Assembly (NCBI GenBank): GCA_049976245.1
Contig: JBMFIQ010000001.1
Coordinates: 1,265-65,264 of the forward strand
Length of the DNA: 64,000 nt
DNA from: Microbacter sp.
GTDB taxonomy: Bacteria > Bacteroidota > Bacteroidia > Bacteroidales > Paludibacteraceae
Direction: 5' to 3'
Both the position numbers and the translations under genes were made by a program. Shown here one piece after another: positions 3,972-58,260 of this stretch (position 1 is the first letter of the stretch; every line of letters begins with the position of its first letter). The notes below the pieces were generated by a model. The model ran no database searches. It was given only the letters and a program-made list of their open reading frames with translations, and had not been told where the DNA came from.

Positions 3972-4014
3972 AAAAAAAGGCCAATGGTTTGTTTGTCAAA
4001 CTACCGGCCTTTTG
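3972..4014 (-). terminator. candidate intrinsic terminator downstream of tRNA-Gln
   Basis: On the minus strand, an imperfect GGCC..GGTAGTTTG / CAAACCATTGGCC hairpin is followed by a T7 run (plus-strand A-run at 3972-3978). Confidence 0.4.
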
Positions 4015-4020
4015 TGAACG

Positions 4021-4091
4021 TTGTCCCGCGAAGATTCGAACTCAGACTAACAGAACCAAAATCTGCTGTGCTACCATTACACCACGGGACA
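4021..4091 (-). tRNA. tRNA-Gln (anticodon TTG)
   Basis: The reverse complement folds by hand into a cloverleaf. The acceptor stem is TGTCCCG/CGGGACA (U1:A72, as in bacterial tRNA-Gln). The anticodon stem is GCAGA/TCTGT with loop TTTTGGT (anticodon TTG). The T-loop is TTCGAAT. No CCA is encoded. Confidence 0.9.
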
Positions 4092-4232
4092 AAAGAGTTT
4101 TTCGCTTAAAAGTGGTGCAAAGTTAATGGATTTCTATGTTTCTGCAAAATATTTTGGCAAAAAAAATAATCCTTTGCTTTTTGTCGCTCTTAAATAACTG
4201 AAGATCTTTCGATTGGGATTTTGTCTTCGTTG

Positions 4233-5552
4233 TTAATCATCTTCCGTGTATTCAGGTTCGGTCACGGCAACTGTGCTATCCGTGTGTTTCAATTGTTTTT
4301 CTAATTCCGAAATTTTAAGTTCCTGATTGTATATTGTTGTAAGCAATGCATTTAATTCTTCATTGTCGATACTAGAAGGATATTGTTCGTTGACCCTACT
4401 CATGAAGTCGGACAACACATTCATGAAATTGGTAAAAGCGGCGAATGGTGATTCGTAGTTTGGCCATACGTTGAAGCTGTTCCATGGTTTTGTGGTCATA
4501 AAATGGAAATGGTCGGAACATTGCAGACAGAGCCAGTCGTGTTTGATACTTCGATCGGAGCAGAGTCTGACGCGTTCGCCCTGATTGTAAAGTTTTTGCA
4601 ATGCTTCTGTTTGCATGATGTTCCCGGTCCAATGACTTACATCTTTTTCCTCACCGCTCCACGATTGAGGATATTGTAGGGTGATGGAAGAAATCGGGTT
4701 GTATTTTTTGGTAATTTCGGCAGGTGTCGAAAAAGTGATGCGATTGGCTAAAGCATGAAAAGGAATGGCGCGCATAAAATCAAAGATGCCGCTCTCTGCT
4801 TTTTGTCGTTCTCCAAAAGTGGGATAACCCATGAAAAGGTTGAAAATTTGTTCTGATGGATCGGTTGATTTAATCCAGTTCATCAGTTTTTCGGCGGTCA
4901 ATGGGAAGTCGCTCCAGCTTCGATCTGAAAATCGAAAGCCGATGTCGTCACTTAACCGCATGTTTCTTACTAATATTTTTAATTCGGGAATCGTTGGATG
5001 ACCATACATGAAATTGGGACTTTTCCATCCCAAAACTTGTTTTGACCCTTCTGTCAGGATGGTTTTAAATCCCATGCTGTGAACCACTTCACCAATTTCA
5101 TCCGAATAAATCATTTCCGTGTTTCGAAATGTGGTGGGCTTGACACCAAAGAGCTCGTTCATCAGATTGGAATGTTGTTCAACCTGTTGAATGAATTCAT
5201 CCACATCAAAAAGTGAAGCCAGCGAGTGTGCATAAGGTTCGGCAATAAATTCCACGTTGCCTGTATTGGCCAATTCCACGAAACTTTCAATGACTTCGGG
5301 AGCAAATTGCTCAAACATCTCAATGCTTAAGCCTGAAATGGAAACTGCTGCCTTAAATTTCCCTTTCGATGTTTTGATCAATTCTAACAGCAACCGATTG
5401 GTTGGCAAAATGGACGTTTGAGCTAAATGCTGCACATTGGATTCGTTGGCGAAATCGTCGAAATAATAGTGATCTTGTCCGATTTCTAAAAATCGGTATC
5501 GCCTCAATAGCATGGGGATGTGCAATTGGAAATAGAAGCAAATTGTTTTCAT
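4233..5552 (-). CDS. glycoside hydrolase family 57 protein (alpha-amylase/branching-enzyme-like)
   Basis: ORF track 4233..5648. The likely true start is the internal ATG at 5552 (MKTICFYFQLHIPMLLRRYRF...), which matches the GH57 N-terminal pattern (F.FH.P...R). Confidence 0.75.
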   Translation of the reverse strand: MKTICFYFQLHIPMLLRRYRFLEIGQDHYYFDDFANESNVQHLAQTSILPTNRLLLELIKTSKGKFKAAVSISGLSIEMFEQFAPEVIESFVELANTGNVEFIAEPYAHSLASLFDVDEFIQQVEQHSNLMNELFGVKPTTFRNTEMIYSDEIGEVVHSMGFKTILTEGSKQVLGWKSPNFMYGHPTIPELKILVRNMRLSDDIGFRFSDRSWSDFPLTAEKLMNWIKSTDPSEQIFNLFMGYPTFGERQKAESGIFDFMRAIPFHALANRITFSTPAEITKKYNPISSITLQYPQSWSGEEKDVSHWTGNIMQTEALQKLYNQGERVRLCSDRSIKHDWLCLQCSDHFHFMTTKPWNSFNVWPNYESPFAAFTNFMNVLSDFMSRVNEQYPSSIDNEELNALLTTIYNQELKISELEKQLKHTDSTVAVTEPEYTEDD

Positions 5553-5700
5553 TGCAAAAGGATTTTGGATGAAAAATGGATGATGTTGACGGGAAACGAT
5601 TGCACCATCTTCGCAAAAGTAGTTTATTTTTGAGCAAATCGCAAACAAAAAATGACATTCATGTTGTCACAAATGTCATTTTCTATTTTTTCTTCCATTT

Positions 5701-6828
5701 TTACAATGATTTGATAAACGCTCTTCTGGTCTTAACATGCTTTGTTTCAAAGCTATCCCATAGTGTGGATACTTTTTGATTGGTTTCCAGTTCGGGATTG
5801 CTTTCGGCATACTGAAATCCGGCTCGGGCATATTCGGGTATCAATTCGGCAAAGAGTAAAGCGCTGGCTCCTTTGGCTTGATAATCGGGGCGAACGGCCA
5901 TGAGGTACAAATCCACTACTTTGTTTTTGCCGTAAAGCGCCTTGAGTAAAAATAGAAATCCAAACGGGAAAAGTCTTCCTTTGGCTTTTTGGAGTGCTTT
6001 GGTCATGCTTGGCAGGGAAAATCCAAAAGCGACTACTTCATCTGCCTGATTCACGACAATGCGTACCAAGTTGGGACGGGCTAACGATAAATAGAGATTA
6101 ATGTAGAATTGGATTTGTTCGTTAGAGAGTGGTGAAAATCCGTATAAATCTTTATAACAAATATTTAAGAGATCAAAAATCTTTTTGCCGTAGTTTTTGG
6201 CTAAAGGTTTAATGGATCGAAACCGGAGTGCCTGCAATTGGTGTTTTTCTTTGACTATCTTGGCAATGCGGAAATGTTTTTCGGGAAAAACTTTGGGTAT
6301 TTGAATGTTATATTCTTTCCAGTCAATGTCTTTTTGATAACCTAAGGCGGCCAAATGTTGAGGGTAATAGGGGAAATTATAATTAGTAGCCATTGTTCCC
6401 GGCTTGTCAAAACCTTCCACCAGCATGCCTTCCCGATCGAAATCAGTAAATCCTACCGGCCCGTGAATGGCTGTCATCTTTTTTTCTTTAGCCCAAGTTT
6501 CAACGGCATCAAGGAGGGCTTTGGTGACTTCCAAGTCATCAATCATGTCGAGCCAGCCAAAACGGGCATGTTGATAGTTCCAATGTTCATTGGTGCGATG
6601 ATTGATGATGCCTGCAACGCGACCAACCATTTTGTTGTCCTTGAACGCCATAAAATAACGTGCTTCGCAAAAAGCAAATGAAGGATTCTTCTCCTTGTTC
6701 AGTATAGTCATGTCATCCATCATCAACGGGGGCGCTGCATAAGGGTGATTGGAGTAGAGTCGAATGCCAAACAAAACAAATTGTTTGAGTTCTTTCCTTG
6801 TTTTAACTTCTCGAATTTCGACGGACAT
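5701..6828 (-). CDS. GNAT-type N-acetyltransferase family protein, specific function unknown
   Basis: 375-aa ORF. It resembles a conserved Bacteroidota GNAT-like family from memory, with an acyl-CoA-binding-like segment (YQAKGASALLFAEL). The substrate cannot be inferred. Confidence 0.55.
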   Translation of the reverse strand: MSVEIREVKTRKELKQFVLFGIRLYSNHPYAAPPLMMDDMTILNKEKNPSFAFCEARYFMAFKDNKMVGRVAGIINHRTNEHWNYQHARFGWLDMIDDLEVTKALLDAVETWAKEKKMTAIHGPVGFTDFDREGMLVEGFDKPGTMATNYNFPYYPQHLAALGYQKDIDWKEYNIQIPKVFPEKHFRIAKIVKEKHQLQALRFRSIKPLAKNYGKKIFDLLNICYKDLYGFSPLSNEQIQFYINLYLSLARPNLVRIVVNQADEVVAFGFSLPSMTKALQKAKGRLFPFGFLFLLKALYGKNKVVDLYLMAVRPDYQAKGASALLFAELIPEYARAGFQYAESNPELETNQKVSTLWDSFETKHVKTRRAFIKSL

Positions 6829-6931
6829 AATGCATTGTTAAGTGCCTGCAAAGTTAGTAAAAATCTTATAATCAAAAACAGACCATTCATTGGGTTGAAT
6901 GGTCTGTTTTTACATATTGTCAATCACTATT

Positions 6932-7984
6932 TTAATTATTTTCCGGCCGCAGTTTCCGCACCACAGCTCCAGCTTGCCACATCTCACTGTTGCGCAAAGC
7001 AGCCAATTCTTCTTCTAATTTTTTTCGATAATCGGGTTGACTGTTTGAATCAATGGATCGCTGGGCTTCGTTGCCGCTGGCTACTTCTTTGTACAATTTT
7101 TCAAAAACGGGTTTTGTGGCATCGCGGAAAGGTTTCCACCAGTCAAGTGCGCCGCGTTGGGCGGTAGTGGAGCAGTTGGCATACATCCAATCCATCCCGT
7201 TTTCGGCTACTAACGGCATCAACGACTGTGTCAATTCTTCAACGGTTTCATTGAAGGCTTCGGAGGGTGAATGTCCATTTGCACGAAGCACGTCATATTG
7301 TGCTGCAAAAATGCCTTGAATGGCTCCCATCAAAGTACCCCGTTCTCCGGTCAGATCCGAATAAACTTCACGTTGGAAAGTGGTTTCAAACAAATAACCC
7401 GACCCAACGCCAATTCCCAGTGAGACGACACGTTCATAGGCTTTGCCGGTGGCATCCTGAAAAATGGCGTAGGATGAATTCAATCCGCGTCCTTGCAAAA
7501 ACATGCGACGCAGGGAAGTTCCTGATCCTTTCGGTGCCACCAGAATGACATCCACATCAGCTGGTGGAATGATGTTGGTGCGTTCTTTGTAAGTGATGGC
7601 AAATCCATGTGAAAAATAAAGGGCTTTTCCTGCGGTAAGATGTTTTTTGACGGTTGGCCATACGGCAATTTGAGCTGCATCCGAAAGCAGGTATTGAATG
7701 ATGGTGCCTCGTTGGCATGCTTCTTCAATCTCAAATAATGTTTGTCCGGGCACCCAACCGTCAGCAACGGCCTTGTCCCATGTTTTTGAATCTTTGCGTT
7801 GCCCAACTATCACATTGAATCCGTTGTCGCGCAAATTCATGCTTTGTCCCGGCCCTTGAACGCCGTAACCAATCACTGCAATCACTTCGTTTTTCAGTAT
7901 ATCACGTGCTTTCTCCAATGGAAACTCTTCACGAGTGACCACATTTTCATTGACTCCTCCAAAATTCATTACTGCCATAATCAA
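6932..7984 (-). CDS. ilvC: ketol-acid reductoisomerase (class I)
   Basis: 350-aa ORF with NFGG..VV.REEFPLEKAR and the NADP-binding GYGVQGPGQSMNLRDNG. The real start may be one of the ATGs a few codons downstream (MAVMNFGG). Confidence 0.93.
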   Translation of the reverse strand: MIMAVMNFGGVNENVVTREEFPLEKARDILKNEVIAVIGYGVQGPGQSMNLRDNGFNVIVGQRKDSKTWDKAVADGWVPGQTLFEIEEACQRGTIIQYLLSDAAQIAVWPTVKKHLTAGKALYFSHGFAITYKERTNIIPPADVDVILVAPKGSGTSLRRMFLQGRGLNSSYAIFQDATGKAYERVVSLGIGVGSGYLFETTFQREVYSDLTGERGTLMGAIQGIFAAQYDVLRANGHSPSEAFNETVEELTQSLMPLVAENGMDWMYANCSTTAQRGALDWWKPFRDATKPVFEKLYKEVASGNEAQRSIDSNSQPDYRKKLEEELAALRNSEMWQAGAVVRKLRPENN

Positions 7985-12850: not shown

Positions 12851-13653
12851 TAAAAATCAACATGAACATGCAACAACAATAATATGATAATGATGAGTCC
12901 GAAAATGATGCGATAGTATCCAAAAAGTTTAAAGCCGTATTTAGTGAGGAAAGCAATAAATCCTTTGATGGCAAAAATGGCCACAAAAAATCCGATGAGA
13001 TTGCCGGCAGCCAGCACGATGAGGTTATGATGCGTCAACAGTTCGGGTGTTTTTTTGTAAGCATCCCAAAAGCTGACCACAAATGCTCCTGCCAGAGTTG
13101 GGACACCCAAAAAGAATGAAAATTCGGCAGCGGCTTTTCGCGTCAGTTTTTGTTGCATGCCGCCAATGATGGTGGATGCGCTTCGGCTCAATCCGGGCAG
13201 GACAACCGATAAAATTTGATAAAACCCAATGATCCATGATTTTTTATAACTGATTTCTTCTTCGGAGTGAATGGTGGGTTGTTTAAACCATTGATCAGCA
13301 AACAACAGTACAAAACCACCTGCAAACATCACAAAAGCTATAACCAAAGGGGTTTGAAGGGCTTCATCAATGTAATTTTTTAATAGTAGCCCAACAATGG
13401 CGGACGGAATCAGCGCGTAGATGAGTTTGACATAAAATTGCCATCTTTTGAAATCAATAAATTTTCTCCAATAGACCACAATGACCGATAAGATGGTGCC
13501 AAACTGAATGTTTTCGATAAACAATTTTGTAAAATCATTTTTTTCAATGCCCATAAAAGCTGATGCTAAGGCCATGTGTCCGGTGGATGAAACAGGCAAA
13601 AATTCCGTCAGGCCTTCAATGATAGCCAAAATCACGGTATGCAACCAGGTCAT
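12850..13653 (-). CDS. uppP: undecaprenyl-diphosphate phosphatase
   Basis: 267-aa polytopic membrane ORF with BacA/UppP motifs (EGLTEFLPVSSTGH, PGLSRSASTI). Confidence 0.92.
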   Translation of the reverse strand: MTWLHTVILAIIEGLTEFLPVSSTGHMALASAFMGIEKNDFTKLFIENIQFGTILSVIVVYWRKFIDFKRWQFYVKLIYALIPSAIVGLLLKNYIDEALQTPLVIAFVMFAGGFVLLFADQWFKQPTIHSEEEISYKKSWIIGFYQILSVVLPGLSRSASTIIGGMQQKLTRKAAAEFSFFLGVPTLAGAFVVSFWDAYKKTPELLTHHNLIVLAAGNLIGFFVAIFAIKGFIAFLTKYGFKLFGYYRIIFGLIIIILLLLHVHVDF

Positions 13654-28128: not shown

Positions 28129-28260
28129 TGTTTTTGTTTTGTGGAAAAACAGTTGAAAAAGGAATTACTCGAAGATTGACCATTGATGTGGTTGTTGAGC
28201 TTTTCATTGGATATAAATTACAGACTAATAATGCAATATAAATTAAAATTAAATAAACGT

Positions 28261-30882
28261 ATGAGAAAATCATTCATGATCACTGCTTCGGTGATTTTAG
28301 CCTTTATGGTTATTTTATTGGTCTTGCCTTTTGCTTTTTCAGGAAAAATCAATACCATCGTAAAGCAGGAAGCAAATAAAAAACTGAATGCTGTATTCAA
28401 TTATGAATCACTGCATTTGAATCTTTTCCGAAATTTTCCGAATGCTACCGTCGAAATCAATGATGTTTCGATCAAAGGCATTGATCGTTTCAAAAACGAT
28501 ACCCTTCTTACGGCGAAATCTTTTCGAGTGGTCATCAATTTGATGAGTCTTTTTGGAAATAAAGGGTATGAGGTGTCAAAGATTGCTCTGGATCAGCCTA
28601 TTGTTCATGCGGTTATTGATCAAAACGGTTTGGTGAATTGGGACATTGTTAAATCCGATACAACCAAACAGACTACCTCTTCTCCTTTTCACATCCGCTT
28701 GAAAAACGTTTCCGTCAAATCGGCTGTGATTTATTATATCGATTATCAAGCGCATCAGCAAATGGTTTTGAACGATTTTTCAGGTTCGCTTTCCGGTGAT
28801 TTTACGTCCGATTTGTCCAATTTAAAGACTCAATGTCACGTTGAGCATCTTTACTTTGATGACAACAAGGTCCGATTGTTGAGCAATGCCAAGGCTGATC
28901 TCAAAGCAACCATCGAAGCCAATTTTCAAAAGGAGATTTATTCGTTAAAAAATAATGAATTGAAAATCAATGATGTAGCGCTTCAATTTGATGGCTGGGT
29001 TGCCGTGCTTAAAGAGGGTTATCGCATGAATTTGAAACTGGTAACGCCTCTCATTTCGTTTAAATCGCTTTTATCCCTAATTCCATCGTTCTATACGGCC
29101 GATTACAAGTCATTACAGGCAGACGGGAAGGTTTCGTTGACGGGATCTTTAAATGGATTGTACAGTCAGGATTCTATTCCTTCATTTCGGTTTTCAGTGT
29201 CATTGTCCAATGGCCGGATGCAATATGCTCAACTGAAACAGCCTGTTACGGACATTAATTTGCAATTGATTGCCGAAGACAAAGGCAACAAACTCAGTCA
29301 GGCTACCATTGCCGTGCCTCGTTTCCATTTTGTGATTGGCCATAATCCGTTCGATTTTACCGGTTTTTTCAGCGATCTTCAGGGAAATACAAATTTCAAG
29401 ATGACATTGGCAGGATTATTGGATCTTTCCAATGTGCGTCAGTTTTATCCACCGGCTCAAGGTATTTCGTTGAGCGGAACCATCTCGGCCAATTTGGCTG
29501 CTTCAGGCACGATGGCTGCCGTGAAAGGAGATCGTTACAATGCCATTCAGGCGTCTGGTTCATTGCAAGTTAATCAGTTAACTTATCAAAGCAATTCGTC
29601 AAAAAAATTATCGATTCCCAAAGCAGTGTTGACATTCAATCAAAACAGTGCAACATTATCACAACTTTCCCTTCTTTATGGGAAAAGTGATCTCAATGCC
29701 AACGGGAAAGTGGACAATATTTTGCCGTATGTCATGTCGGGTCAAACCATTCAGGGCGCTTTGAAACTTTCGTCCAATTATTTGGATCTTAATGAATGGA
29801 TGGGTGCTTCCTCTTCAAAAACTACTTCAGCTGCGACAGCTTTTCAAGTGCCTAAAAACATTGATTTTGATTTAATAAGTTCATTGAAGCAAGTTTTTTT
29901 GAATACATTCGATTTTAGAAATGTGCTTGGAGAGGTTTCAATCAAAGATGGAATTTTGACATTGAATCATTTGCAAACCGATTTTTTGGGTGGTCAGGTG
30001 TCGATGAATGGGAATTACAATACAGCGATCGATCCGACAAAACCTTCTGTCGATTTCACCCTTCAGGTGCAAGATGCCAATTTTTTCAAAACGTATCAAA
30101 CATTGGATATAGCTAAAAAATTGGCTCCGATTTTTTCACATATTCAGGGTTCTTATCATTTGAACATGTCCATGAAAACCGATTTGGATCGTCAATTAAA
30201 TGTGATCTACAAAACATTCAACGCACAAGGGCTTTTAACTTCACATAACATTTCAGTGGGTGAAATTCCTGCATTGGATGCTCTATCGAATGCTTTGAAA
30301 ACGCAAGATCTTAAAAAGCTGAATGTAAAAGACATAAGCATTCCGTTTACCATAACTGACGGCTTGGTTCGAACGCCTCCTTTTGATTTGAAAGTGGCCG
30401 GTTATGCGTTGACTTTGGGTGGAACTACAGGGTTGGATCAATCCATTCAGTATCAAGGGAAAATTTCTTTACCGTCTCATCTTTCATCTCCATTGGGAGT
30501 TCCCATTTCCAATCTTCCATTTCAACTTTACGGGACTTTTTCACAGCCAAAAGTTAAATTGGACATGAATGCTTTGGGTAAGGAAATGGTTAGCGGAGCA
30601 GTCACAAAGGCCATCAATGCCATAGCCCCATCAGGTGTAGTGAAGCAAGCCGATATGGAACAACGCATCAATCAGATACGAGCCGACGCCAAAGCCAAAT
30701 CGGATGCGCTGTTGCAGGAAGCGCAAAACCGTGCCAATCAGTTGATCAGTCAGGCAAAAAATCCCTTTGCCAAGATGGCAGCACAAAAGGTAGCAGATAA
30801 AATCATGAATTCAGCTCGAAAACAAGCGGAGGATGTCCTCTCGAAAGCTGAATCGGAGGTACAAAAACTTCAAAATCAATAA
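28261..30882 (+). CDS. AsmA-family outer-membrane biogenesis protein
   Basis: ORF track 28183..30882. The likely start is ATG 28261 (MRKSFMITASVILAFMVILLV = single N-terminal TM helix). A long beta-rich body and an AsmA-like C-terminal region are followed by a coiled-coil tail. Confidence 0.7.
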   Translation: MRKSFMITASVILAFMVILLVLPFAFSGKINTIVKQEANKKLNAVFNYESLHLNLFRNFPNATVEINDVSIKGIDRFKNDTLLTAKSFRVVINLMSLFGNKGYEVSKIALDQPIVHAVIDQNGLVNWDIVKSDTTKQTTSSPFHIRLKNVSVKSAVIYYIDYQAHQQMVLNDFSGSLSGDFTSDLSNLKTQCHVEHLYFDDNKVRLLSNAKADLKATIEANFQKEIYSLKNNELKINDVALQFDGWVAVLKEGYRMNLKLVTPLISFKSLLSLIPSFYTADYKSLQADGKVSLTGSLNGLYSQDSIPSFRFSVSLSNGRMQYAQLKQPVTDINLQLIAEDKGNKLSQATIAVPRFHFVIGHNPFDFTGFFSDLQGNTNFKMTLAGLLDLSNVRQFYPPAQGISLSGTISANLAASGTMAAVKGDRYNAIQASGSLQVNQLTYQSNSSKKLSIPKAVLTFNQNSATLSQLSLLYGKSDLNANGKVDNILPYVMSGQTIQGALKLSSNYLDLNEWMGASSSKTTSAATAFQVPKNIDFDLISSLKQVFLNTFDFRNVLGEVSIKDGILTLNHLQTDFLGGQVSMNGNYNTAIDPTKPSVDFTLQVQDANFFKTYQTLDIAKKLAPIFSHIQGSYHLNMSMKTDLDRQLNVIYKTFNAQGLLTSHNISVGEIPALDALSNALKTQDLKKLNVKDISIPFTITDGLVRTPPFDLKVAGYALTLGGTTGLDQSIQYQGKISLPSHLSSPLGVPISNLPFQLYGTFSQPKVKLDMNALGKEMVSGAVTKAINAIAPSGVVKQADMEQRINQIRADAKAKSDALLQEAQNRANQLISQAKNPFAKMAAQKVADKIMNSARKQAEDVLSKAESEVQKLQNQ

Positions 30883-49972: not shown

Positions 49973-52900
49973 ATGAAAAAATCAATTACATTATTAAGAA
50001 CGTTGTTTTTTGTTTTGTTTTTACTCGTTGTAAACGGGGTTCTTTACGGACAAGCCTCTTTGCCTGTAAATGCCACGTTTTCATCAGTAACAACTTCAGG
50101 TCCTGGTACGATGCCTACCGGCTTTACCCAATCGGGCTTGGGTGGATATGCCGGTGCGTTGAAATTTGACACGCAAGGTGATTACTTGATTCTTTGGTTT
50201 GCCGGTACACCAGGTGTTTTGACATTTGATGTAGGAGTCAATATTACATTTCCGGGGAGTATTCCTTCAGGTGCAACTTTCACACTACAACAGTCGAACG
50301 ATGGAACTATTTATACCGATGTGGCCAATTACACAAACTGTTCAGGTGGAACTAAAACAATCAGCAATTTAAATGCAACGACCAGATATGTGAAATGGAT
50401 TTACAGCACTAAACGATCAGGGACAAATATTGCATTAAAGAATATTTCTCTGGCGGCTGCTTCTTCTTCCACAGGAATCATCTCCCTTTCGCCTGCTTCT
50501 TTGTCAGGGTTTACCTACGTTGAAGGGTCCGGCCCTTCATCTGAACAAACATTTACGCTTTCTGGCAGTAATTTGACAGCAGATGTTAGCTTGACAGCTT
50601 CGACAGATTTCGAAATTTCAAAAACTTCCGGTTCAGGTTATGCTTCACCGTTGGTTTTTACTCCATCGAACGGAACTTTGGATGCGACTACAATTTATGT
50701 CCGTTTGAAATCAGGATTGTCAGTCGGTAGTTATAGTAATGAAGCAATCACGGCTTCTTCAACAGGCGCTGACAACCAAACAATCACATGCAGCGGGAGC
50801 GTGACATCGCCTGTAAAACCAGAGCCCTCTGCTTATCCTACGTCGTTTACCGCCACTGCCAATTCGAGCAGTCAAATTACGATAACATGGACTGATGCTA
50901 CAGGCGGACAGGTCCCCGATGGCTATTTGGTGAAAGCATCAACGGGGACACCAACTGCACCGGTTGACGGCACTGCAGAATCAAATGGCGCATTGGTACT
51001 AAATGTTGCGCAAGGAACACAGCAAGCGGTATTTTCGGGTTTAGCAGCTTCAACAACATACAATGTTTCCATTTGGCCATACACCAATAGTGGCACTGCC
51101 ATCAATTATAAAACTGACGGAACTGAGCCTACCGCCACTGCAACGACCAACGCTTCGGCTTCTTATACTTGGAATCAAACGGGTTCTGCAGATTTTGGAA
51201 CAGCTTCTAATTGGACTCCGGCAAGAAGCAATCCCGATCCAACGGATGTTTTGGTCTTTAACAACGGAGCTGTCACTACCGTTACAGGCGTTTCGTCTCA
51301 AACCATTGGCGGATTGCTTGTATCGAATGGATCGAAAGTAACCTTTTCCAGTTCTGCCCCTGCAACGCTTACCATCAACAATGGCATAAGCGGTTTTGAT
51401 TTGACTGTAGATAACGGATGCGAATTAAATATTGCTCAAACCTCCGCAAATGCTTTTACAATAGCGATTGCTTCAGGAGCCACAGGGAGCATTTCCGGAT
51501 CGATGGATTTTTCGAGTACCACAGCCAATACCGTAAATCAAATTACAGCCGCTGACGCTTCAGGACTTATCTTCAATGCAGGAGCTCTATTTACCCAAAA
51601 TCTGAACAGTACAGGCAATGTCTTTGGGAGTGGCACAGCCAACAGTGTTGTGTTTGCAAACGGTTCAAGTTTTGTTCAATATGCAGGATCCAATCCTTTT
51701 CAAAAAACAGCTCCATCTTCAGTGGTTGTTTTTCAAACAGGGAGCTTGTTTAAGTTGAAAGGAAGTCTTTCTCCATCATTTTCGGGAAGAACATATGCGA
51801 ACGTGGAAATTGATGCTACCGGTAGTTTGATCTCTCCAACAGGAACTTCTGCTGTTGTCATGGACAACCTGACCATTACGAATGGGACATTGAATTTCAA
51901 TGTAACCGGAGCGCCCGGTCATATCATTAAAGGGAACATTTTCGTGGCGCCCGGAGCCACATTGAATTTTGCCCCTACTTCAGCAGGAACGGTCAATCTC
52001 GGCGGAAGTGCATTGCAAACCATTTCAGGAGGTGGCATCATCACCACTGCTACTAATTCAACTTTGAACATCAGTAATAATGCCGGTGTTATGATTGACA
52101 ACAATGCTGTTATTGGTGGTAATTTAACCATTGCAAGCGGTGCATCCTGCAGTCTTAATCCAGCCCGACAACTTACCGTTTCAGGTACTTTAACAAACAA
52201 CGGGACGTTGAATTTGTTGTCCGATGGAACCTATGGAACAGCTACCATTACAGGAACGGTTAACGGCAGTGGGACGACCAACGTAACTCAGGTTCTTGGG
52301 GCCGACCGTAACTGGTATTTGTCATCACCGGTGAGTAATGCAGCTATACCGGATGCCGATCAGGTTTGGTATTATGACGAAACGGTGGTCAGTGCTAACG
52401 CCAATGATAGTTGGAAATCGCCTACCGGATTGTTGCAAGTTGGAAGAGGTTACATTGTCAATCCTAAAGCAGACGCTATCGATCATATTATTTTCAGTGG
52501 GCTTTTGAACAGCGGTGATCAACCGGCGATCACTTTGACGCGGACTTCAACCAAAACAAATTATGTTGGGTTTAATTTATTAGGAAATCCCTACGCTTCA
52601 TTTTTGAATGTCAATGCGTTGATGAATGATCCGGACAATACAGGCAGCGTGTTGCCTACCATCTGGTATCGTACCAAGAATGGTAGCGCATGGTCATTCC
52701 CAACATTTAATGCATCCTCCGGAATCGGAGTTCCGGCTGACAACCTTGGATTCATTCCTCCTATGCAGGCTTTTTGGGTTCGTGCTACAACAGACGGCGT
52801 TTCATTTCATTTTAAGGAGGCTTTTCGGATTCACAACACCACCAATTCTCCGATAGCCTTTAAATCTTCTCCTGCACCGTTCAATAAAGTGTTGCGCTTG

Positions 52901-53557
52901 CAGGTAGCTGCCGGTGACAATACCGATCAGGCCGTGATTTACTTCAATCCTGGCGCTTCGAATGGTTTGGATGATTACGATTCGCCTAAAATGCTGAATG
53001 GAAGCACATCGACACTTCCCGATCTTTACACTTCCGAAGGGAACGAACCCTTGATTATTAACGGGATGGATACCATTCCTTACGATACGGAAATTCCCTT
53101 GACGCTCAATGCCAATGCAGCGCCGACCAGCACCTTTACCATATCGGCATTGGAATTCAGCAATTTTGATCCGAATACACATGCTTATTTGATCGATCAC
53201 GACACCAACAGCAAAACGGATTTGACGACGGACACCTACACCTTTACGTCAGATGGCACGATGAGTTCTCGATTTTCGGTTTTGTTCACATCGTCCAATC
53301 CGGCTACGAAAATTGGGACAACCACAAGCGGAGTACTACAGGTTTACACCACGAACGATCATGCCATTGTAGTGAGTTGCAACGTCAATGGATCAGGGGC
53401 GCAACGGGTGAACGTGTACAATTCGATGGGCGAATTGATCTATTCGAAAACATTTACCGGAAGCCAGTTGATCACTCCAGCGATGAATGAAGGGATGTAT
53501 GTGGTGGAATGGATGAACCAAACCGGCCGACAAATCAGGAAAGTCATGGTGCATTAA
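49973..53557 (+). CDS. large secreted T9SS cargo protein (Ig-like + FN3-like + beta-helix-like repeats + C-terminal sorting domain)
   Basis: 1194-aa ORF with a signal peptide (LFFVLFLLVVNGVLYGQA). An FN3-like segment is present (SSQITITWTDATGGQVPDGYLVKAS...TTYNVSIWPY). A long Gly/Asn/Thr-rich repetitive region suggests a beta-helix. The last ~70 aa (..VNVYNSMGELIYSKTF...GMYVVEWMNQTGRQIRKVMVH) match the Por_Secre_tail / T9SS type A CTD pattern. Confidence 0.8.
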   Translation: MKKSITLLRTLFFVLFLLVVNGVLYGQASLPVNATFSSVTTSGPGTMPTGFTQSGLGGYAGALKFDTQGDYLILWFAGTPGVLTFDVGVNITFPGSIPSGATFTLQQSNDGTIYTDVANYTNCSGGTKTISNLNATTRYVKWIYSTKRSGTNIALKNISLAAASSSTGIISLSPASLSGFTYVEGSGPSSEQTFTLSGSNLTADVSLTASTDFEISKTSGSGYASPLVFTPSNGTLDATTIYVRLKSGLSVGSYSNEAITASSTGADNQTITCSGSVTSPVKPEPSAYPTSFTATANSSSQITITWTDATGGQVPDGYLVKASTGTPTAPVDGTAESNGALVLNVAQGTQQAVFSGLAASTTYNVSIWPYTNSGTAINYKTDGTEPTATATTNASASYTWNQTGSADFGTASNWTPARSNPDPTDVLVFNNGAVTTVTGVSSQTIGGLLVSNGSKVTFSSSAPATLTINNGISGFDLTVDNGCELNIAQTSANAFTIAIASGATGSISGSMDFSSTTANTVNQITAADASGLIFNAGALFTQNLNSTGNVFGSGTANSVVFANGSSFVQYAGSNPFQKTAPSSVVVFQTGSLFKLKGSLSPSFSGRTYANVEIDATGSLISPTGTSAVVMDNLTITNGTLNFNVTGAPGHIIKGNIFVAPGATLNFAPTSAGTVNLGGSALQTISGGGIITTATNSTLNISNNAGVMIDNNAVIGGNLTIASGASCSLNPARQLTVSGTLTNNGTLNLLSDGTYGTATITGTVNGSGTTNVTQVLGADRNWYLSSPVSNAAIPDADQVWYYDETVVSANANDSWKSPTGLLQVGRGYIVNPKADAIDHIIFSGLLNSGDQPAITLTRTSTKTNYVGFNLLGNPYASFLNVNALMNDPDNTGSVLPTIWYRTKNGSAWSFPTFNASSGIGVPADNLGFIPPMQAFWVRATTDGVSFHFKEAFRIHNTTNSPIAFKSSPAPFNKVLRLQVAAGDNTDQAVIYFNPGASNGLDDYDSPKMLNGSTSTLPDLYTSEGNEPLIINGMDTIPYDTEIPLTLNANAAPTSTFTISALEFSNFDPNTHAYLIDHDTNSKTDLTTDTYTFTSDGTMSSRFSVLFTSSNPATKIGTTTSGVLQVYTTNDHAIVVSCNVNGSGAQRVNVYNSMGELIYSKTFTGSQLITPAMNEGMYVVEWMNQTGRQIRKVMVH

Positions 53558-53627
53558 AAAGGCAGTTTGAACTGAGATAAATATCAAGAATCAATCAAGA
53601 ATCAATCAAAAATAAAAACAAGTCAAT

Positions 53628-53786
53628 ATGAAACGTATTTATATCGCCCCCGAAATTGAAACCATCCAATTAGATCATGAAATCTCTTTAGCGTTGGAAT
53701 CGACCCCGCCGAATGGGCCTGACGAAACTTTAAACACCCGGGAACATTTCACTCCAAATGATCCATATAATCCGACATTGACCTAA
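53628..53786 (+). CDS. candidate RiPP precursor peptide (52 aa), unannotated sORF
   Basis: Hand translation gives MKRIYIAPEIETIQLDHEISLALESTPPNGPDETLNTREHFTPNDPYNPTLT*. It has an A-rich Bacteroidota-style translation start and a lasso-leader-like Y-x-x-P-x-I-x-x-I motif. It sits immediately upstream of PqqD, kinase and peptidase-ABC genes and is followed by an intrinsic terminator. Confidence 0.6.
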   Translation: MKRIYIAPEIETIQLDHEISLALESTPPNGPDETLNTREHFTPNDPYNPTLT

Positions 53787-53802: not shown

Positions 53803-53842
53803 AAAAAACCGTCTGTAGCCTTTTAGTTCGGACGGTTTTTTT
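53803..53842 (+). terminator. intrinsic terminator/attenuator directly after the precursor sORF
   Basis: AAAAAACCGTC (53803-13) / GACGGTTTTTTT (53831-42): the CCGTC/GACGG stem, extendable through A:T pairs, is followed by a T7 run. Confidence 0.65.
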
Positions 53843-53874: not shown

Positions 53875-53882
53875 TATATTTG
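53875..53882 (+). promoter_or_regulatory. -7 box (TATATTTG) upstream of the PqqD-kinase-ABC genes
   Basis: TAnnTTTG 34 nt upstream of ATG 53916. Confidence 0.45.
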
Positions 53883-53915: not shown

Positions 53916-54206
53916 ATGAATTTTGAACAATTAAAAGCATTAAAATCTCATTTTGTTTCTAAAGAAGTAGGCGATGAACTTGTTTTAGTGCCGCTGACAA
54001 ATAATGTCGTTCAGATGAATGAACTTTTTACGCTCAATGAAACCGGTCGGTTTATTTGGCAAAACAGCGACAACGTTGAGGACATCGATCGAATGGCCAC
54101 TTTAATGACCGATGCTTTCGACATTGATCGTGAAACTGCACAAAAGGATATTTCAAACTTTTTAGATCGAATTGCTACTTTATTCATTAAAAAACGCAGC
54201 CTATAA
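53916..54206 (+). CDS. PqqD-family protein (RiPP recognition element-like peptide chaperone)
   Basis: 96-aa ORF. Its size and pattern (..GDELVLVPL....MNELFTLNETGRFIWQ......DIDRMATLMTDAFDIDRETAQKDISNFLDRI) are typical of stand-alone PqqD/RRE proteins such as lasso B1. Confidence 0.75.
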   Translation: MNFEQLKALKSHFVSKEVGDELVLVPLTNNVVQMNELFTLNETGRFIWQNSDNVEDIDRMATLMTDAFDIDRETAQKDISNFLDRIATLFIKKRSL

Positions 54207-54213: not shown

Positions 54214-55071
54214 ATGCCTGTCAAAACACTTTCCATTGCCGGCATCGTTGTTCAACTTCGTTCCGATTCCCCTTTTATGCTGGAAGAAGGTTATTTGCCT
54301 TTTGTCGTGAACAATGCCTTTTTGCCATCCGTTCTTATTGATTGCCATTTGGGAATTCCACCTTCCGTGATTCCTGTTTCTACTCCTGTTTTTGAGGCCA
54401 AAACTGAAGTTCAACAATTTTATGCCGTTTACGATCGCGGAAGTGAAGGATTGCTTTTTCAAATTTTTGATCAGCAGGATGGCAAAACGCAGCAGATAGC
54501 CATTAGCAATGCGACTTTTGATCAATGGGAAATATTTTCGGAATCGATGAACGGGATGCTTATTCCCTTAAAATTTCCTCTCGGCCCCATCATCATTCAC
54601 TATATGGCGTTGAATTTGGAAGCCGTTTTGATGCATGCTTCATGTGTTTTCGATGGGCAGAAAGGGCGTTTGTTCAGCGGTTTTTCAGGCGCAGGCAAAA
54701 GCACCATTTCACGCATATTCTCAAAATCGGGTCAAACTGTGGTGAATGATGACAGAATCCTGATTCGGAAAGAAAAAGGGAACTTTATTGCTTACAATAC
54801 GCCGATGTATTATGTCGATCAACCCAAAAATGCCTCATTGGATGCCATTTATTTGATTCATCACTCGCCAGAAAATAGCATAAAACAATTAACGGGAGCA
54901 TTGGCTGTGACAAAAGTAATGGCTTTTTGCATTCAAAATAATTTTGATCGACAATTTGTGAATGCGCGGTTGAACTTTTTTGTCGAACTGTGCTCTAAAG
55001 TGAAGGTTTATGAACTTGGTTTTGTCCCTGACAAAAGCGTTGTGGATTTTATTTCACAACATGCTGAATGA
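54214..55071 (+). CDS. HPr-kinase-like P-loop serine/threonine kinase (lasso-precursor-kinase-like)
   Basis: ORF track 54172..55071. The likely start is ATG 54214, 7 nt after the PqqD stop. LMHASCVFDGQKGRLFSGFSGAGKSTISRIF...GQTVVNDDRILI mirrors the HprK C-terminal kinase core (HA..V...G.G.L..G.SG.GKS.....L...G..LV.DD). Confidence 0.7.
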   Translation: MPVKTLSIAGIVVQLRSDSPFMLEEGYLPFVVNNAFLPSVLIDCHLGIPPSVIPVSTPVFEAKTEVQQFYAVYDRGSEGLLFQIFDQQDGKTQQIAISNATFDQWEIFSESMNGMLIPLKFPLGPIIIHYMALNLEAVLMHASCVFDGQKGRLFSGFSGAGKSTISRIFSKSGQTVVNDDRILIRKEKGNFIAYNTPMYYVDQPKNASLDAIYLIHHSPENSIKQLTGALAVTKVMAFCIQNNFDRQFVNARLNFFVELCSKVKVYELGFVPDKSVVDFISQHAE

Positions 55072-55130: not shown

Positions 55131-57368
55131 ATGACAAAACTGACCGGAAAAGAACCATTGATCCATTTAGCCGAAGCGCTGCTTGAAGGTGACCATTCGG
55201 TGAGTTTTGTGATGCAGGGCTACAGCATGTATCCAACGTTGCGTCCGTCTGACAAAGGGTTGGTCGAAAAATGTCATCCAAAAGACCTTCGAAAAGGGGA
55301 CATCCTTGTTTTTCGACAAGATCAACAATGGATTGCGCACCGACTCATGCAGATCAAAGTCACGGAAAATGGCACTACGTTTTTGACAAAAGGAGATCGG
55401 CTTAAAACGTTTGATGCGCCTGTTGATGAAAAAGCCGTTGTGGGAAAGGTGATCGCTTATGAACGACACAACAAAACCGTCTCATTGAATGGATTGGTTT
55501 TAAGAAAGCAATTTGTATTGCATTTTCCAACCTTCAGTGCAAGACTTTTTAGCATGGAATTATCCATCCTGCTGCAATTTCTCCATACCAGAGAAAGCAT
55601 TGCCCGTTTGATTAAGCATGTCAAGCTGTTTTTGCAAGGTTCAGTCAGGATTTTTCTCATCAATAGCTTGATTTCCGTGCTTCAGGGAGTTGTTCCGTTG
55701 TTGACCATTGTGTCCATCAAAATGCTTATTGATCAAATTGGAAAGGCTTCTCTTCAAGGCAGTTCAGTCTATGTCCTTTTCTGGCTGATCATTACAGGCT
55801 CTCTTTTTCTTTTGGCAGGGATATTGACCGAGATGTCAGGATTCTTTTTAGAGAAAATGGAACAATCGGTTTCGCGCATGGTTTATCGCAGTATGCACGA
55901 CAAACACGCAACGATTCCGCTGGCAGCCTACGAAATACCGACAGAGCAGGATAAAATGCATCGTGCCGTTCAGGAGGCGTCATTTCGTCCTTTGAAATGG
56001 TTGAATGAACTTTTGGGGTTGATACGTTCCGTTACGGGATCTCTGTTGTTAGCCGTAATTTTTTTGACCATTCGGTGGTATTTACCCATCATTTTGTTAG
56101 TTGCCGTTTTGCCTGGTGTGGTTGTACGACTTCGGTATGCTCGCCGTAACTACCGGCTCAAAACAGCCCAAAGTACCCAAGAGCGTGCCTTGTACTATTT
56201 TAATCGTGTCTTGACAGCTTTTCCGTTTGCTAAAGAGCTGCGACTTTTTCATTTTTCCGACTACTTTAAAACAAAATTCTCGACGGTACAGGAAGATTTG
56301 TTTGCGGAGAAATTATCGCTTAGAAAAGCGGAAATGACGGGCGGGATTTTGACACAACTCTTTGCCGTCATGGTCATTTTTGGGAGCATGGGATTGTTCT
56401 CTTATCTGAGCTTGAACAATTCAGTTAGCGTGGGCACGGTGGTGCTGTTTTTCTTTGCCTTTCAACGTGGATATGCCGTGGTGAATGAGCTTTTTCAATC
56501 CATTATCCGAATTTCACAGGATAATATATTTTTGGACGATGTGAGTGCGTTTTTGCAACAATCACAAGATGTTGAAAATAAACAACATGATCGCGTATTT
56601 TCATTAAAAAAAGAAATCCGATTTGAACAAGCCTCGTTCAGTTATGCGCACAGCGGACGCCAAGCATTGAAGAATATTGATTTGATTATTCCTGTGGGTA
56701 AAAAAGTGGCGTTTGTCGGCGAAAACGGCTCGGGAAAAACAACCACAGTCAAATTGCTTTGCGGATTTTACTATCCCGACAGCGGCAAAGTGACTTACGA
56801 CGGCATTTCTACCACCGAGTTCAACCCATCTGCAATCTTGGAACACATTGCTGCCGTTTTTCAGGATTTTGCACTTTACAATCTCACCGCCCTCGAAAAC
56901 ATCGGATTAGGCAATGTGGCTTCGCCCGTCAATTTGGAGAAGACGCAGTTGGCAGCACAAAAAGCCGGTATTCATGATGTGTTGAACAAACTTCCTCGCG
57001 GTTATCATCATCTATTGGGCAATTTGTTTGAAGGAGGAGAAGAGTTGAGCATGGGTCAGTGGCAAAAAATGGCTTTAGCCAGAGCTTTTTATAGAGATTC
57101 GGAATTGATTGTCTTGGATGAGCCTTCCAGTGCGCTCGACGCTCATGCCGAAAAACAAATGGTCAATGCACTTCGCAGGCTTACCGCCGACAAAACTGCC
57201 GTCATTGTCAGTCATCGGTTGTCCACCGTGCAATGGGCAGACAAAATTTACTTTTTTCACGATGGTGAAGTTCGAGAAGAGGGCACGCACACTGAATTGA
57301 TGGCGCTGAAAGGAGGTTATTATCAATTGTTTAACGCCGTCAATAGTGGCAATGATGGTCATGAATAA
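55131..57368 (+). CDS. fusion protein: N-terminal SipW/Sec11-type (S26) signal-peptidase-like domain + ABC exporter (TMD + NBD)
   Basis: ORF track 55095..57368 (TTG). The likely start is ATG 55131. The N-terminal ~130 aa carry GYSMYPTL (SPase Ser box), GDILVFR, IAHRL (His box of ER/archaeal-type SPases) and TKGD. Multiple TM helices follow. The NBD has Walker A GENGSGKTT, signature LSMGQWQK, Walker B LIVLDEPSSALD and H-loop VSHR. Confidence 0.75.
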   Translation: MTKLTGKEPLIHLAEALLEGDHSVSFVMQGYSMYPTLRPSDKGLVEKCHPKDLRKGDILVFRQDQQWIAHRLMQIKVTENGTTFLTKGDRLKTFDAPVDEKAVVGKVIAYERHNKTVSLNGLVLRKQFVLHFPTFSARLFSMELSILLQFLHTRESIARLIKHVKLFLQGSVRIFLINSLISVLQGVVPLLTIVSIKMLIDQIGKASLQGSSVYVLFWLIITGSLFLLAGILTEMSGFFLEKMEQSVSRMVYRSMHDKHATIPLAAYEIPTEQDKMHRAVQEASFRPLKWLNELLGLIRSVTGSLLLAVIFLTIRWYLPIILLVAVLPGVVVRLRYARRNYRLKTAQSTQERALYYFNRVLTAFPFAKELRLFHFSDYFKTKFSTVQEDLFAEKLSLRKAEMTGGILTQLFAVMVIFGSMGLFSYLSLNNSVSVGTVVLFFFAFQRGYAVVNELFQSIIRISQDNIFLDDVSAFLQQSQDVENKQHDRVFSLKKEIRFEQASFSYAHSGRQALKNIDLIIPVGKKVAFVGENGSGKTTTVKLLCGFYYPDSGKVTYDGISTTEFNPSAILEHIAAVFQDFALYNLTALENIGLGNVASPVNLEKTQLAAQKAGIHDVLNKLPRGYHHLLGNLFEGGEELSMGQWQKMALARAFYRDSELIVLDEPSSALDAHAEKQMVNALRRLTADKTAVIVSHRLSTVQWADKIYFFHDGEVREEGTHTELMALKGGYYQLFNAVNSGNDGHE

Positions 57369-57615
57369 ATGTTTGACACTCCGATTTCTCAATGTATTGC
57401 ATCATCAGCTTGGCGAATGATTGAATGAACTTTTCCGGAAAATGGAACTTTTGGTGCCGCTTTTTTGATCAGAGGATGGATTTTTGTTAAATATTATTTT
57501 AACAGAATGTTTTAACATAAAAAAATTGCAAAAATTCATCTTTTATGCGTAACTTTTTCGTCTGAATTTTAGTGTGTTATTTTCACCACTTTCAGAAGAT
57601 AAGGAGGAAACAATT

Positions 57616-58260
57616 ATGACAACAAAACAGCCTTTAATCATTACCATCAGTCGACAGTTAGGTTCGGGTGGGGCATACATCGGGCAGTTGATTGCAAGAT
57701 ATTTTGACATTCTTTACGCCGATCGTGACATCATTGCCGACACAGCCAAAACATTATCGCTCCATCCTAAAGACATTGCTCATCGTGACGAGAAAATGAT
57801 TTCCGGATGGGAATCATTTATTCAAGCCATTACTCGACCTCCCGAACGGATTGAATTCAAGCCGTTTCCTCCTACCGATAAAGAACTTTTTAAGGCTGAA
57901 AGTGAAGTCATTAGGCGTTTGGCTTTTGAACGTTCTGCCGTGATCATGGGTCGCTGTGGTTCGTGCATCCTTCATGACCATCCCAATCTGATCAGTGTCT
58001 TTTTACATGCAAGCGATGAGTTCCGCATCAAACATCTTTGCGATGTTCACCAGATGTCGGAAGTCAAAGCAAAAAAAACCATTGTGGAATACGACAAGGC
58101 CAGAGGAGCTTTTATCAAACAGTTTACCGGCGTGGACTGGAAAGATGCCACGCACTATCATCTTACTTTTAAAACAGACCTTCTTGGTCTTGACACAACG
58201 GCTAAAGAAATCATCAATGTCGTTGAAACCATGTTGTCCAAAAAAGAACAGCTTCTTTAA
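57616..58260 (+). CDS. cytidylate-kinase-like family protein (AAA/P-loop, function unknown)
   Basis: ORF track 57574..58260 (GTG). The likely start is ATG 57616 (MTTKQPLIITISRQLGSGGAYIGQLIA), preceded by AAGGAGG at 57601-57607. The pattern resembles the Cytidylate_kin2 family. Confidence 0.65.
   Translation: MTTKQPLIITISRQLGSGGAYIGQLIARYFDILYADRDIIADTAKTLSLHPKDIAHRDEKMISGWESFIQAITRPPERIEFKPFPPTDKELFKAESEVIRRLAFERSAVIMGRCGSCILHDHPNLISVFLHASDEFRIKHLCDVHQMSEVKAKKTIVEYDKARGAFIKQFTGVDWKDATHYHLTFKTDLLGLDTTAKEIINVVETMLSKKEQLL

Follow-up and report, generated by a model that had tools for sequence, protein, structure and literature searches.

The question raised by this locus is what is encoded by a small open reading frame (sORF) of 52 codons that lies, in a 64,000-nucleotide stretch of Microbacter sp. 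DNA (hereafter the window), between the gene for a 1194-aa secreted protein and the genes for a PqqD-family protein, an HprK-like kinase and a peptidase fused to an ATP-binding cassette (ABC) exporter, and with which of these neighbors its product works. The sORF is a conserved protein-coding gene. Based on the genes that accompany it and on comparison with a pathway described by Popov et al. (Nat Commun 2026; PMC13381572), its product is probably the precursor peptide in a pathway of Bacteroidota that is related to the one for "linear polyphosphorylated peptides" (LPP), where it would undergo LPP-like binding, phosphorylation, leader removal and export. The positions of the features discussed below are collected in Table 1.

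The translation read from the window sequence, MKRIYIAPEIETIQLDHEISLALESTPPNGPDETLNTREHFTPNDPYNPTLT, is 52 aa long. A recount reproduced the position, length and composition given for it in a preliminary description made from the DNA alone: residues 5–13 are YIAPEIETI, residues 20–22 are SLA, and the last 28 residues include six Pro, six Thr, four Asn, one Ser, one Tyr and no Cys. The same description had called the sORF unannotated, which was incorrect, as it is recorded publicly as "MAG: hypothetical protein ACP5F6_00230 [Microbacter sp.]" (MAG, metagenome-assembled genome). Searches of Pfam and NCBIfam with the 52-aa peptide gave no match to any model, and the sole match in a single-sequence search was the peptide itself. 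To look at the sORF in related genomes, 289 homologs of the neighboring kinase were collected and 80 genomic loci were fetched from species-representative genomes, mostly of Paludibacter and other Bacteroidales with some Flavobacteriales, and in many of these loci a small ORF resembling the window peptide was present upstream of the PqqD gene. A hidden Markov model (HMM) of the peptide homologs, run against the window and 86 related loci translated in six frames, identified 52 copies from 40 sources, the best with an E-value of 1e-25, so that the conserved sORF anticipated in the preliminary description does exist in related genomes. A profile search of a 5.8-billion-protein collection identified 130 clusters, all of them "hypothetical" and none with a Pfam domain. 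Together, 150 distinct homologous peptides were found, and they occur in Bacteroidales and Flavobacteriales.

The members of this family share, after a basic N-terminus, an ungapped block of the form YxxPx[IV]xx[IV]x[LI]Dx[ED][IF][STA]…S, which in the window peptide spans 21 residues with the [ED]-[IF]-[STA] triplet at residues 18–20, and 51 of the 52 copies match the pattern Y..P.{7}D.{8}S without an indel. M1, Y5, P8, D16 and S25 are invariant, I13 and P28 are conserved in at least 90% of copies, and 93% have I or V at position 10. Among 47 distinct DNA versions of the block, the mean pairwise differences at codon positions 1, 2 and 3 are 0.42, 0.29 and 0.65, and the invariant Pro and Ser are encoded by four and five different codons, respectively; this third-position excess and the use of synonymous codons at invariant residues indicate selection on a protein. 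The other two frames of the same 47 blocks hold 73 and 116 stop codons. Beyond the block, the tail has a median length of 25 residues and is rich in Pro (16%) and Asn (13%) and poor in Cys (0.4%). In the window peptide it begins with a PPxGPxE-like stretch and has an NDP[FY]K-like motif at its end, and in the family as a whole the end is most often a [DN]P[FY]K-like motif, with [DNS]P[FYLM] present in the last 15 residues of 128 of the 150 peptides. The expectation that a conserved leader would be followed by a variable core was thus borne out for the leader block, but the core is not hypervariable throughout, since its Pro-rich start and [DN]P[FY]K-like end are kept. Variants of other lengths were also observed. 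In two Flavobacteriales/Crocinitomicaceae MAGs (loci L076, 7896–8162, minus strand, and L079, minus strand) there is a longer sORF of 77–88 aa with an N-terminal extension, MCCSGNSS…, before the usual leader, located directly after a discrete signal-peptidase gene, and a truncated copy of 40–47 aa that ends soon past the conserved block is found upstream of the PqqD gene.

The genes downstream of the sORF have the makings of a peptide-processing set. The PqqD gene adjoins the kinase gene in 77 of the 80 loci, with the peptidase–ABC gene in 74. PqqD-family proteins of this kind act as recognition elements (RREs) for peptides that are made on the ribosome and modified after translation (RiPPs), and for the window protein the best NCBIfam models are PqqD chaperones of lasso peptides, all sub-threshold, and the best match in a sequence search of the PDB is the lasso RRE TbiB1; the LppB/LppA crystal entries were not among the matches of that search. 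The kinase has weak, sub-threshold sequence matches to HprK, ScmC and PEPCK models (Pfam, NCBIfam). Its AlphaFold model (pLDDT 89) matches PEPCK and HPr kinase/phosphatase in Foldseek with a probability of 1.00 and E-values of ~1e-7, and the P-loop and DD motifs are invariant among its homologs. Two of these homologs (P0067 and P0082) are named "phosphoenolpyruvate carboxykinase (ATP)" in public MAG records, a label that very probably over-annotates them on the basis of the P-loop region they share with that enzyme. The kinase has a length of only ~290 aa, and in the window its score against PF01293 is 19.5 bits, below the cut-off of 26.5. In the third protein, approximately the first 150 residues form the peptidase domain, which is of the S24/S26 type, and the C-terminal two-thirds is an MsbA-like ABC exporter (MsbA_lipidA, 7e-81, below the equivalog cut-off, and ABC_tran). 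The best PDB matches to the peptidase domain are SEC11A/C, and its motifs GYS44MYPT, IAH82RL and TKGD101R align with their catalytic Ser, His and Asp, making S44 (55224–55226), H82 (55338–55340) and D101 (55395–55397) the candidate catalytic residues. Based on these matches and the aligned triad, the enzyme belongs to the archaeal/ER (Sec11/SipW-like) Ser-His-Asp type and not to the bacterial Ser-Lys type, which revises the earlier proposal of a type I signal peptidase.

In its logic this set resembles the LPP pathway, which is stated to be restricted to Bacillota (PMC13381572). Its core genes encode an archaeal-type signal peptidase, LppS (S29, H68, D93), a discrete RRE, LppB, an HprK-like kinase, LppK, an MsbA-like exporter and an uncharacterized NTP-transferase, LppN, the gene names used being LppA, LppB, LppK, LppS, LppD and LppN, and its precursors have the motif YxxPxVLxHQxIxFET↓xxS (PMC13381572). 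Experiments in the same study showed that Ser3 of the core is polyphosphorylated, that LppS cleaves after T-1, that cleavage needs the RRE and is inefficient on the unphosphorylated precursor, and that N33 and D70 of LppB hold the Pro and Tyr of the leader (PMC13381572). When the LppS, LppB and LppA sequences from the supplement of that paper were compared with the window proteins, the peptidase domain was found to share 26% identity with LppS across 131 aa (E = 1e-13), with S29, H68 and D93 of LppS aligning with S44, H82 and D101. The PqqD protein aligned with LppB over 48 residues, with N33 and D70 falling on N41 (54036–54038) and D78 (54147–54149), so that in both systems the PqqD-type RRE is a discrete protein in which the Asn and Asp contact residues are retained. 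The proposal that the Y-x-x-P-x-[I/V] motif of the sORF is a leader motif for a PqqD-type RRE is supported by this, given that its Tyr and Pro are invariant in the family. The two systems are further alike in having an HprK-like kinase (likened by fold and motifs), an archaeal-type Ser-His-Asp signal peptidase and an MsbA-like exporter. In each, the precursor is basic at its N-terminus and has Y-x-x-P-x-[V/I] with a conserved S/T at Tyr+15, the core is linear, poor in Cys and rich in Pro and Asn, and there is no cyclase. They differ in phylum, in the fusion of the peptidase to the ABC exporter in Bacteroidales (it is discrete in Flavobacteriales), and in the placement of the precursor genes, which are multi-copy, dispersed and attached to large secreted-protein genes here whereas LPP genes are found in capsule loci.

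A direct connection between the two systems was found in Supplementary Data 1 of the LPP paper, where cluster 8 of the sequence similarity network contains the peptidase–ABC proteins of Paludibacter propionicigenes and Porphyromonadaceae bacterium CG2_30_38_12; in both of these Bacteroidota rows the RREs are filed as "RRE others" and the precursor is given as ND (PMC13381572). The second of these organisms is the source of our locus L034, in which the PqqD sequence is identical and a member of the sORF family lies 117 nt upstream of the PqqD gene. From this we infer that the sORF family is the precursor that was left as ND.

In LPP precursors the cleaved Thr (−1) comes 15 residues after the leader Tyr (−16) (PMC13381572). 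The equivalent position of the sORF family, Tyr+15 (S20 in the window), is S in 54%, T in 38% and A in 7%; it is preceded by [ED] in 92% of the family and also by [IF], and the "E-F-T" of Flavobacteriales members compares with the "F-E-T" of LPP. The preliminary description had placed cleavage after S-L-A, which is unlikely, as position 22 varies among F, Q, A, V, T and I in the family and there is no conserved small residue at −1. S20↓L21 and S25↓T26 fit better, and of these S20↓L21 is preferred here, because Tyr+15 is S, T or A in the family and T-1 of LPP is equally distant from its Tyr. Such cleavage would give a 32-residue core, LALESTPP…TLT, with S25 at core position 5, and the invariant S25 is the most likely candidate for the phosphate acceptor. 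On this basis we propose that the PqqD protein would bind the leader via Y5-x-x-P8-x-I10, that the kinase would phosphorylate a Ser, most likely S25, that the Ser-His-Asp signal-peptidase domain fused to the exporter would remove the leader and that the MsbA-like ABC half would move the Pro/Asn-rich peptide across the inner membrane to the periplasm. The earlier suggestion of a kinase substrate with an RRE-bound leader removed by a signal peptidase is in keeping with this scheme, as the kinase and peptidase are conserved partners and the logic would match that of LPP. Because neither a cyclase nor a B2 peptidase was found, the product would have to be linear.

The distribution of the sORF relative to the processing genes suggests that one processing set per genome apparently serves several precursor genes in trans. 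Among 61 informative loci, the sORF is located no more than 700 nt upstream of the PqqD gene in 20 and elsewhere in the locus in 12 more. When the 29 loci lacking an sORF were searched for a second, different YxxP-type precursor, only eight unrelated chance ORFs were identified. Within one genome, sORF paralogs are 73–74% identical and the C-terminal modules encoded next to them (see below) 44–48% identical; the greater similarity of the peptides fits with their sharing a single recognition and processing machinery. Particularly informative was the Flavobacteriales locus L076, in which one strand has the genes for PqqD, the kinase and an NTP_transf_5 protein (PF14907, 7e-31) and the other has those for a module protein, an sORF, a discrete 155-aa peptidase that is 29% identical to LppS (E = 3e-16) and another sORF-like product. 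The position of the discrete peptidase gene between two sORF copies ties the sORF directly to the peptidase, and the locus shows that the peptidase–ABC fusion of Bacteroidales is a derived arrangement.

The main linkage of the sORF, which was not seen in the preliminary description, is to the large gene upstream. All 36 sORFs with readable upstream sequence are directly behind a same-strand large gene whose product ends in the same conserved module of ~490–495 residues (~700–1194 of the window protein), and conversely 35 of the 44 module genes in the loci are followed by an sORF. The distance from the stop codon of the module gene to the ATG of the sORF is 27 nt at the median and does not exceed 16 nt in 12 of 33 cases. 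Two of two module proteins chosen without regard to sORFs also had a family member directly downstream, with unrelated genes around. Module–sORF pairs were found within loci on the opposite strand to the processing genes or several kb from them, and searches from the sORF matches identified others that have no PqqD or kinase gene within 10 kb. In the locus of Paludibacter sp. STD2_198 (L082, JAQUWU010000023.1), a large protein is paired with an sORF three times in succession (877 + 59 aa, 1155 + 57 aa and 954 + 60 aa; positions 1–7601) directly upstream of one PqqD–kinase–peptidase/ABC set. Identity between sORFs correlates with identity between modules (Spearman 0.41–0.57; Mantel, 0 of 999 permutations); since this correlation is confounded by shared ancestry, it was not used as evidence of co-evolution.

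The module proteins are candidate cargo for type IX secretion (T9SS). The Por_Secre_tail/T9SS sorting domain (TIGR04183/PF18962) is matched in the 1194-aa protein at 19.9 bits, below the cut-offs of 23 and 27, and its homologs have PF18962 matches that are not marked sub-threshold. The N-terminal parts of the module proteins differ, and include cadherin-like, Laminin_G, lectin, beta-helix, DUF285 and Gly-rich domains. The module itself was detected in 4008 representative proteins (50% clustering) at E ≤ 1e-3, and in 1251 at E ≤ 1e-30, and in the 150 best of these matches (P0241–P0390) it is at the C-terminal end of proteins of 480–2977 aa. Its invariant motifs include NWY.SSP, G.GY, GNPYPS and PPMQAFWV. 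A structure model made from an alignment of database representatives is all-beta (pLDDT 86); a Foldseek search of the PDB with it gave no match to the whole module, only generic immunoglobulin/fn3 sandwiches with TM ≤ 0.15, and its last ~85 residues form a beta-sandwich resembling DUF3244 (TMt 0.73).

Given that the peptide has no signal peptide, that the product of its partner gene is Sec-exported and that the two genes are almost contiguous, we propose a joint role, in which the mature peptide would not be a free antibiotic but would act with the cargo proteins, either in the periplasm or on the surface of the cell. Of all parts of our explanation, this is the weakest. In its most specific form, for which we have only tentative confidence, the peptide would be a dedicated partner of T9SS cargo that is matured by one RiPP-type machine and meets the Sec-exported cargo in the periplasm. 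There it might bind or complete the module, or its new N-terminal amine might be an acceptor or anchor in T9SS sorting. Our literature search for T9SS together with PqqD found no paper linking them, nor was a paper found on the coupling of precursor genes to T9SS-type cargo genes.

It is important to note that a number of observations weigh against the assignment of the sORF as an LPP-like precursor. Phosphorylation, the cleavage site and export would each follow from homology and gene order. In an hhalign comparison of the sORF family with 15 LPP precursors only 12 columns aligned, comprising the basic stretch and YxxPx[VI], with a probability of 6%, and on this account the peptide is not assigned here to the family of LPP precursors. 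Past YxxP the two sets of precursors could not be aligned: the LPP junction motif xIxFET↓xxS is absent from the sORF family, which instead has [ED][IF][STA]-[LYF]x[LTS]xS at its junction ([ED][IF][ST]-LxL[ED]S as compared with FET-xxS). There is also an alternative cleavage site, S25↓T26, with L, T, S or M at −3 and the invariant Ser at −1, and if S25 were the −1 residue then the kinase would be left without an obvious conserved acceptor, as no tail Ser or Thr other than S25 is conserved in the family alignment. No NTP-transferase (LppN, PF14907-type) was identified among the window ORFs, and precomputed Pfam gene tables showed none beside the processing genes of the Bacteroidales loci L081 and L082, so that this gene is missing from the Bacteroidales loci examined; in the Flavobacteriales loci L076 and L086 an NTP-transferase gene is next to the kinase gene. 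With respect to linkage, 29 of the 61 informative processing-gene loci have no sORF within ~6 kb, which means that the pairing must often work in trans, and that arrangement is demonstrable in one MAG only, which has a processing locus without an sORF on one contig (L051) and an sORF pair on another (L084). Finally, the sORF is linked more tightly to the cargo gene than to PqqD, and the primary relationship of the peptide might instead be with the cargo.

This last point is the strength of an explanation in which the peptide assists the secreted protein encoded upstream, for example as a co-translated partner, an assembly factor or an inhibitor, and is not a substrate of the PqqD, kinase and peptidase proteins; its proximity to PqqD in the window would then be incidental, both being associates of cargo genes. 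Such a role would account for the module link in 36 of 36 cases as against PqqD adjacency in 20 of 61, for the sORFs with no PqqD or kinase gene within 10 kb, and for the short intergenic gaps, which suggest co-translation. We nevertheless consider it unlikely, as a peptide with neither a signal peptide nor a hydrophobic segment would never meet a Sec-exported partner without a dedicated exporter. Moreover, the invariant Y-x-x-P is what PqqD-type RREs bind and the contact residues for it are kept, the discrete peptidase gene of L076 is between two sORFs, and no other candidate substrate was found in the processing-gene loci. An improbable variant of the preferred pathway is that the processed and exported phosphopeptide acts as a diffusible antimicrobial or signal and is next to cargo genes for reasons of co-regulation only. 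That is the usual role of RiPPs with dedicated ABC transporters, and genes for a hybrid histidine kinase and a sigma-54 activator are present downstream in the window, as is a His_kinase/LytTR pair in L081, but such regulators are not conserved in the neighborhood, with counts of five and two among the 80 loci. In addition, the inferred export would reach only the periplasm of a diderm cell, no outer-membrane component is linked to the system, and near-identical copies that are each tied by 7–30 nt to a different cargo gene are unlike bacteriocin or pheromone genes.

The two remaining explanations were rejected. A lasso precursor, in which D32 or E33 would close a ring onto the new N-terminus, was suggested by the YxxP leader motif, by the sub-threshold lasso-chaperone matches and the TbiB1 match of the PqqD protein, and by the fair conservation of E33 in the family. 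However, neither an Asn-synthetase-like cyclase nor a transglutaminase-like B2 peptidase was found among the window ORFs of at least 180 aa or among the conserved neighbors in the 80 loci, in agreement with the absence of a cyclase noted in the preliminary description. In the family alignment S, T or A is conserved at Tyr+15 but the residues two past it are F, Q, A or V, and none of Gly, Ala, Ser and Cys is conserved at a likely first residue of the core that has Thr at −2. With neither a cyclase nor a B2 peptidase found, this explanation is extremely improbable. We assign an equally slight chance to the ORF being fortuitous, or part of a non-coding element in the leader or terminator region of its neighbors. 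The ORF is short, and an Rfam search gave a match to "Thr_leader" over its 3′ end and the hairpin that follows it, but this scored 24 bits against a cut-off of 55 and nothing in that search exceeded its gathering score. Against such an origin are the codon-position signature, the stop codons in the other two frames, and protein-level conservation with HMM matches to 1e-25 across Bacteroidales and Flavobacteriales.

Table 1. Positions in the window of the sORF, its parts and its neighbors, and the basis of each assignment
Feature	Position	Strand	Basis
sORF, putative 52-aa precursor peptide	53628..53786	+	ATG-to-TAA, translation and family conservation
Codons Y5–I13 (YIAPEIETI), putative RRE-binding motif Y-x-x-P-x-[IV]-x-x-[IV]	53640..53666	+	Family conservation, hhalign against LPP leaders
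Codons Y5–S25, 21-residue ungapped conserved block (leader and junction)	53640..53702	+	Family alignment
Codons T26–T52, Pro/Asn/Thr-rich Cys-free tail	53703..53783	+	Residue counts and family alignment
Intrinsic-terminator-like hairpin and U-run, 17 nt after the sORF stop	53803..53841	+	Folding
TATATTTG, fits the Bacteroidetes −7 promoter consensus TAnnTTTG	53875..53882	+	Read by eye; 34 nt before the PqqD start
Gene for 1194-aa secreted protein	49973..53557	+	fn3 domain, Sec-type signal peptide by eye
Conserved C-terminal module, ~490–495 residues (~700–1194) of the 1194-aa protein	52070..53554	+	Homology to proteins before sORFs
PqqD-family RiPP recognition element, 96 aa	53916..54206	+	PF05402, 1.2e-13
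HprK/PEPCK-fold P-loop kinase, 285 aa from ATG	54214..55071	+	Fold and motifs GFSGAGKST, NDDR
Archaeal/ER-type signal peptidase domain fused to MsbA-like ABC exporter, 757 aa	55095..57368	+	Domain and structure-sequence matches
Cytidylate-kinase-like gene after the exporter gene	57574..58260		PF13189, 3.7e-45

A number of additional features were identified around the sORF and its neighbors. The hairpin downstream of the sORF has a folding energy of −17.8 kcal/mol (z = −4.6), and none of 200 shuffled sequences folded equally well; it was overlooked by a simple terminator scan owing to its long loop and was revealed by folding. The 80 nt 3′ of the sORF homologs fold at ≤ −15 kcal/mol in 38 of 46 cases, as compared with 80 of 230 control windows. 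In Bacteroides promoters the −7 consensus is TAnnTTTG, and the element that resembles it after the hairpin suggests that the processing genes may have their own promoter. The 70-nt spacer between the stop codon of the 1194-aa gene and the ATG of the sORF contains a tandem repeat (53583–53613) of an 11-nt unit, ATCAAGAATCA, in 2.8 copies with 95% matches; as the same spacer is merely 7–30 nt in many other loci, the repeat is not a conserved element. With regard to gene starts, a TTG at 54172 would give a kinase of 299 aa, whereas the public record begins at the ATG at 54214 (285 aa), and homologs align with the peptidase–ABC protein only from approximately residue 13–22, which fits a start at the ATG at 55131. 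The TTG starts of the ORFs at 54172 and 55095 are therefore both probably too far upstream. The cytidylate-kinase-like gene was beside the processing genes in none of the 80 loci and thus is probably outside the system. Elsewhere in the window, every ORF of at least 180 aa that is matched by Pfam at E ≤ 1e-5 is a housekeeping gene, and an 899-aa ORF at 28183–30882 on the plus strand has no Pfam family at that threshold. In the Flavobacteriales contig of L086, a HepT-like/NTP_transf_2 pair (HEPN-MNT type; 12955–13582, minus strand) between the cargo genes and the NTP_transf_5–kinase–PqqD genes is probably an unrelated toxin–antitoxin insertion.

Partial parallels to the arrangement can be found in several other known systems. 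For T9SS cargo with a type-B C-terminal domain, a porP/sprF-like gene follows the cargo gene, and there too a cargo gene is followed by a small dedicated partner at many loci per genome; the partner here, unlike that outer-membrane beta-barrel, is a peptide of 50–60 aa that is made in the cytoplasm with a RiPP-type leader. Peptidase-containing ABC transporters (PCATs), also known as ABC transporter maturation and secretion (AMS) proteins, have an N-terminal leader peptidase (C39) fused to the exporter, with cleavage coupled to export. The Bacteroidales protein resembles them in having a leader peptidase fused N-terminally to an ABC exporter and, presumably, in coupling cleavage to export, but its peptidase has the S26B signal-peptidase fold in place of a C39 cysteine protease and an RRE is involved; in addition, no conserved double-Gly-type motif (GG, GA, GS) was found in the alignment of the peptide family. 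The pairing of a PqqD-like protein with an HprK-like P-loop protein is shared with SynChlorMet ScmC/ScmD and with the HprK-related kinase A/B systems. The kinase has weak matches to ScmC, HprK_rel_A and HprK_rel_B that are far below the cut-offs (38 bits against 200), and the SynChlorMet system differs in that it has a radical-SAM/SPASM partner, which is lacking here. In lasso peptides of the paeninodin type, an HprK-like kinase polyphosphorylates one Ser (summarized in PMC13381572 and PMC7533575). The phosphorylated lasso systems, with their HprK-like kinase, B1 RRE and nucleotidyltransferase, resemble the window system in combining a PqqD RRE and an HprK-like kinase with a [Y/W]xxP-leader precursor, and differ from it in that the window system has neither a macrolactam cyclase nor a cysteine-type B2 peptidase. 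A cluster type such as this one is not described in the Bacteroidales RiPP-mining paper (PMC10352776).

The enzymology of LPP is already known from the work published in 2026 (PMC13381572); if our assignment is correct, a class of RiPPs that was described as restricted to Bacillota would extend to Bacteroidota. What would be new is the phylum, the precursor family, the peptidase–exporter fusion and the systematic coupling to T9SS-type cargo genes. The fusion joins a leader peptidase of the signal-peptidase type to an ABC exporter, in parallel to the C39–ABC exporters of bacteriocins. A genome has several precursor genes, which are dispersed rather than clustered with the enzyme genes, and each directly follows a gene whose large secreted product ends in the shared module. 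This pairing gives rise to the concrete hypothesis that the peptide works with the cargo, which is genetically testable in Bacteroidota that can be manipulated, the cultured Paludibacter propionicigenes of the LPP supplement being one example. Should the peptide prove to be a partner of T9SS cargo, it would represent the first link of RiPP-type peptide maturation to a protein secretion system.

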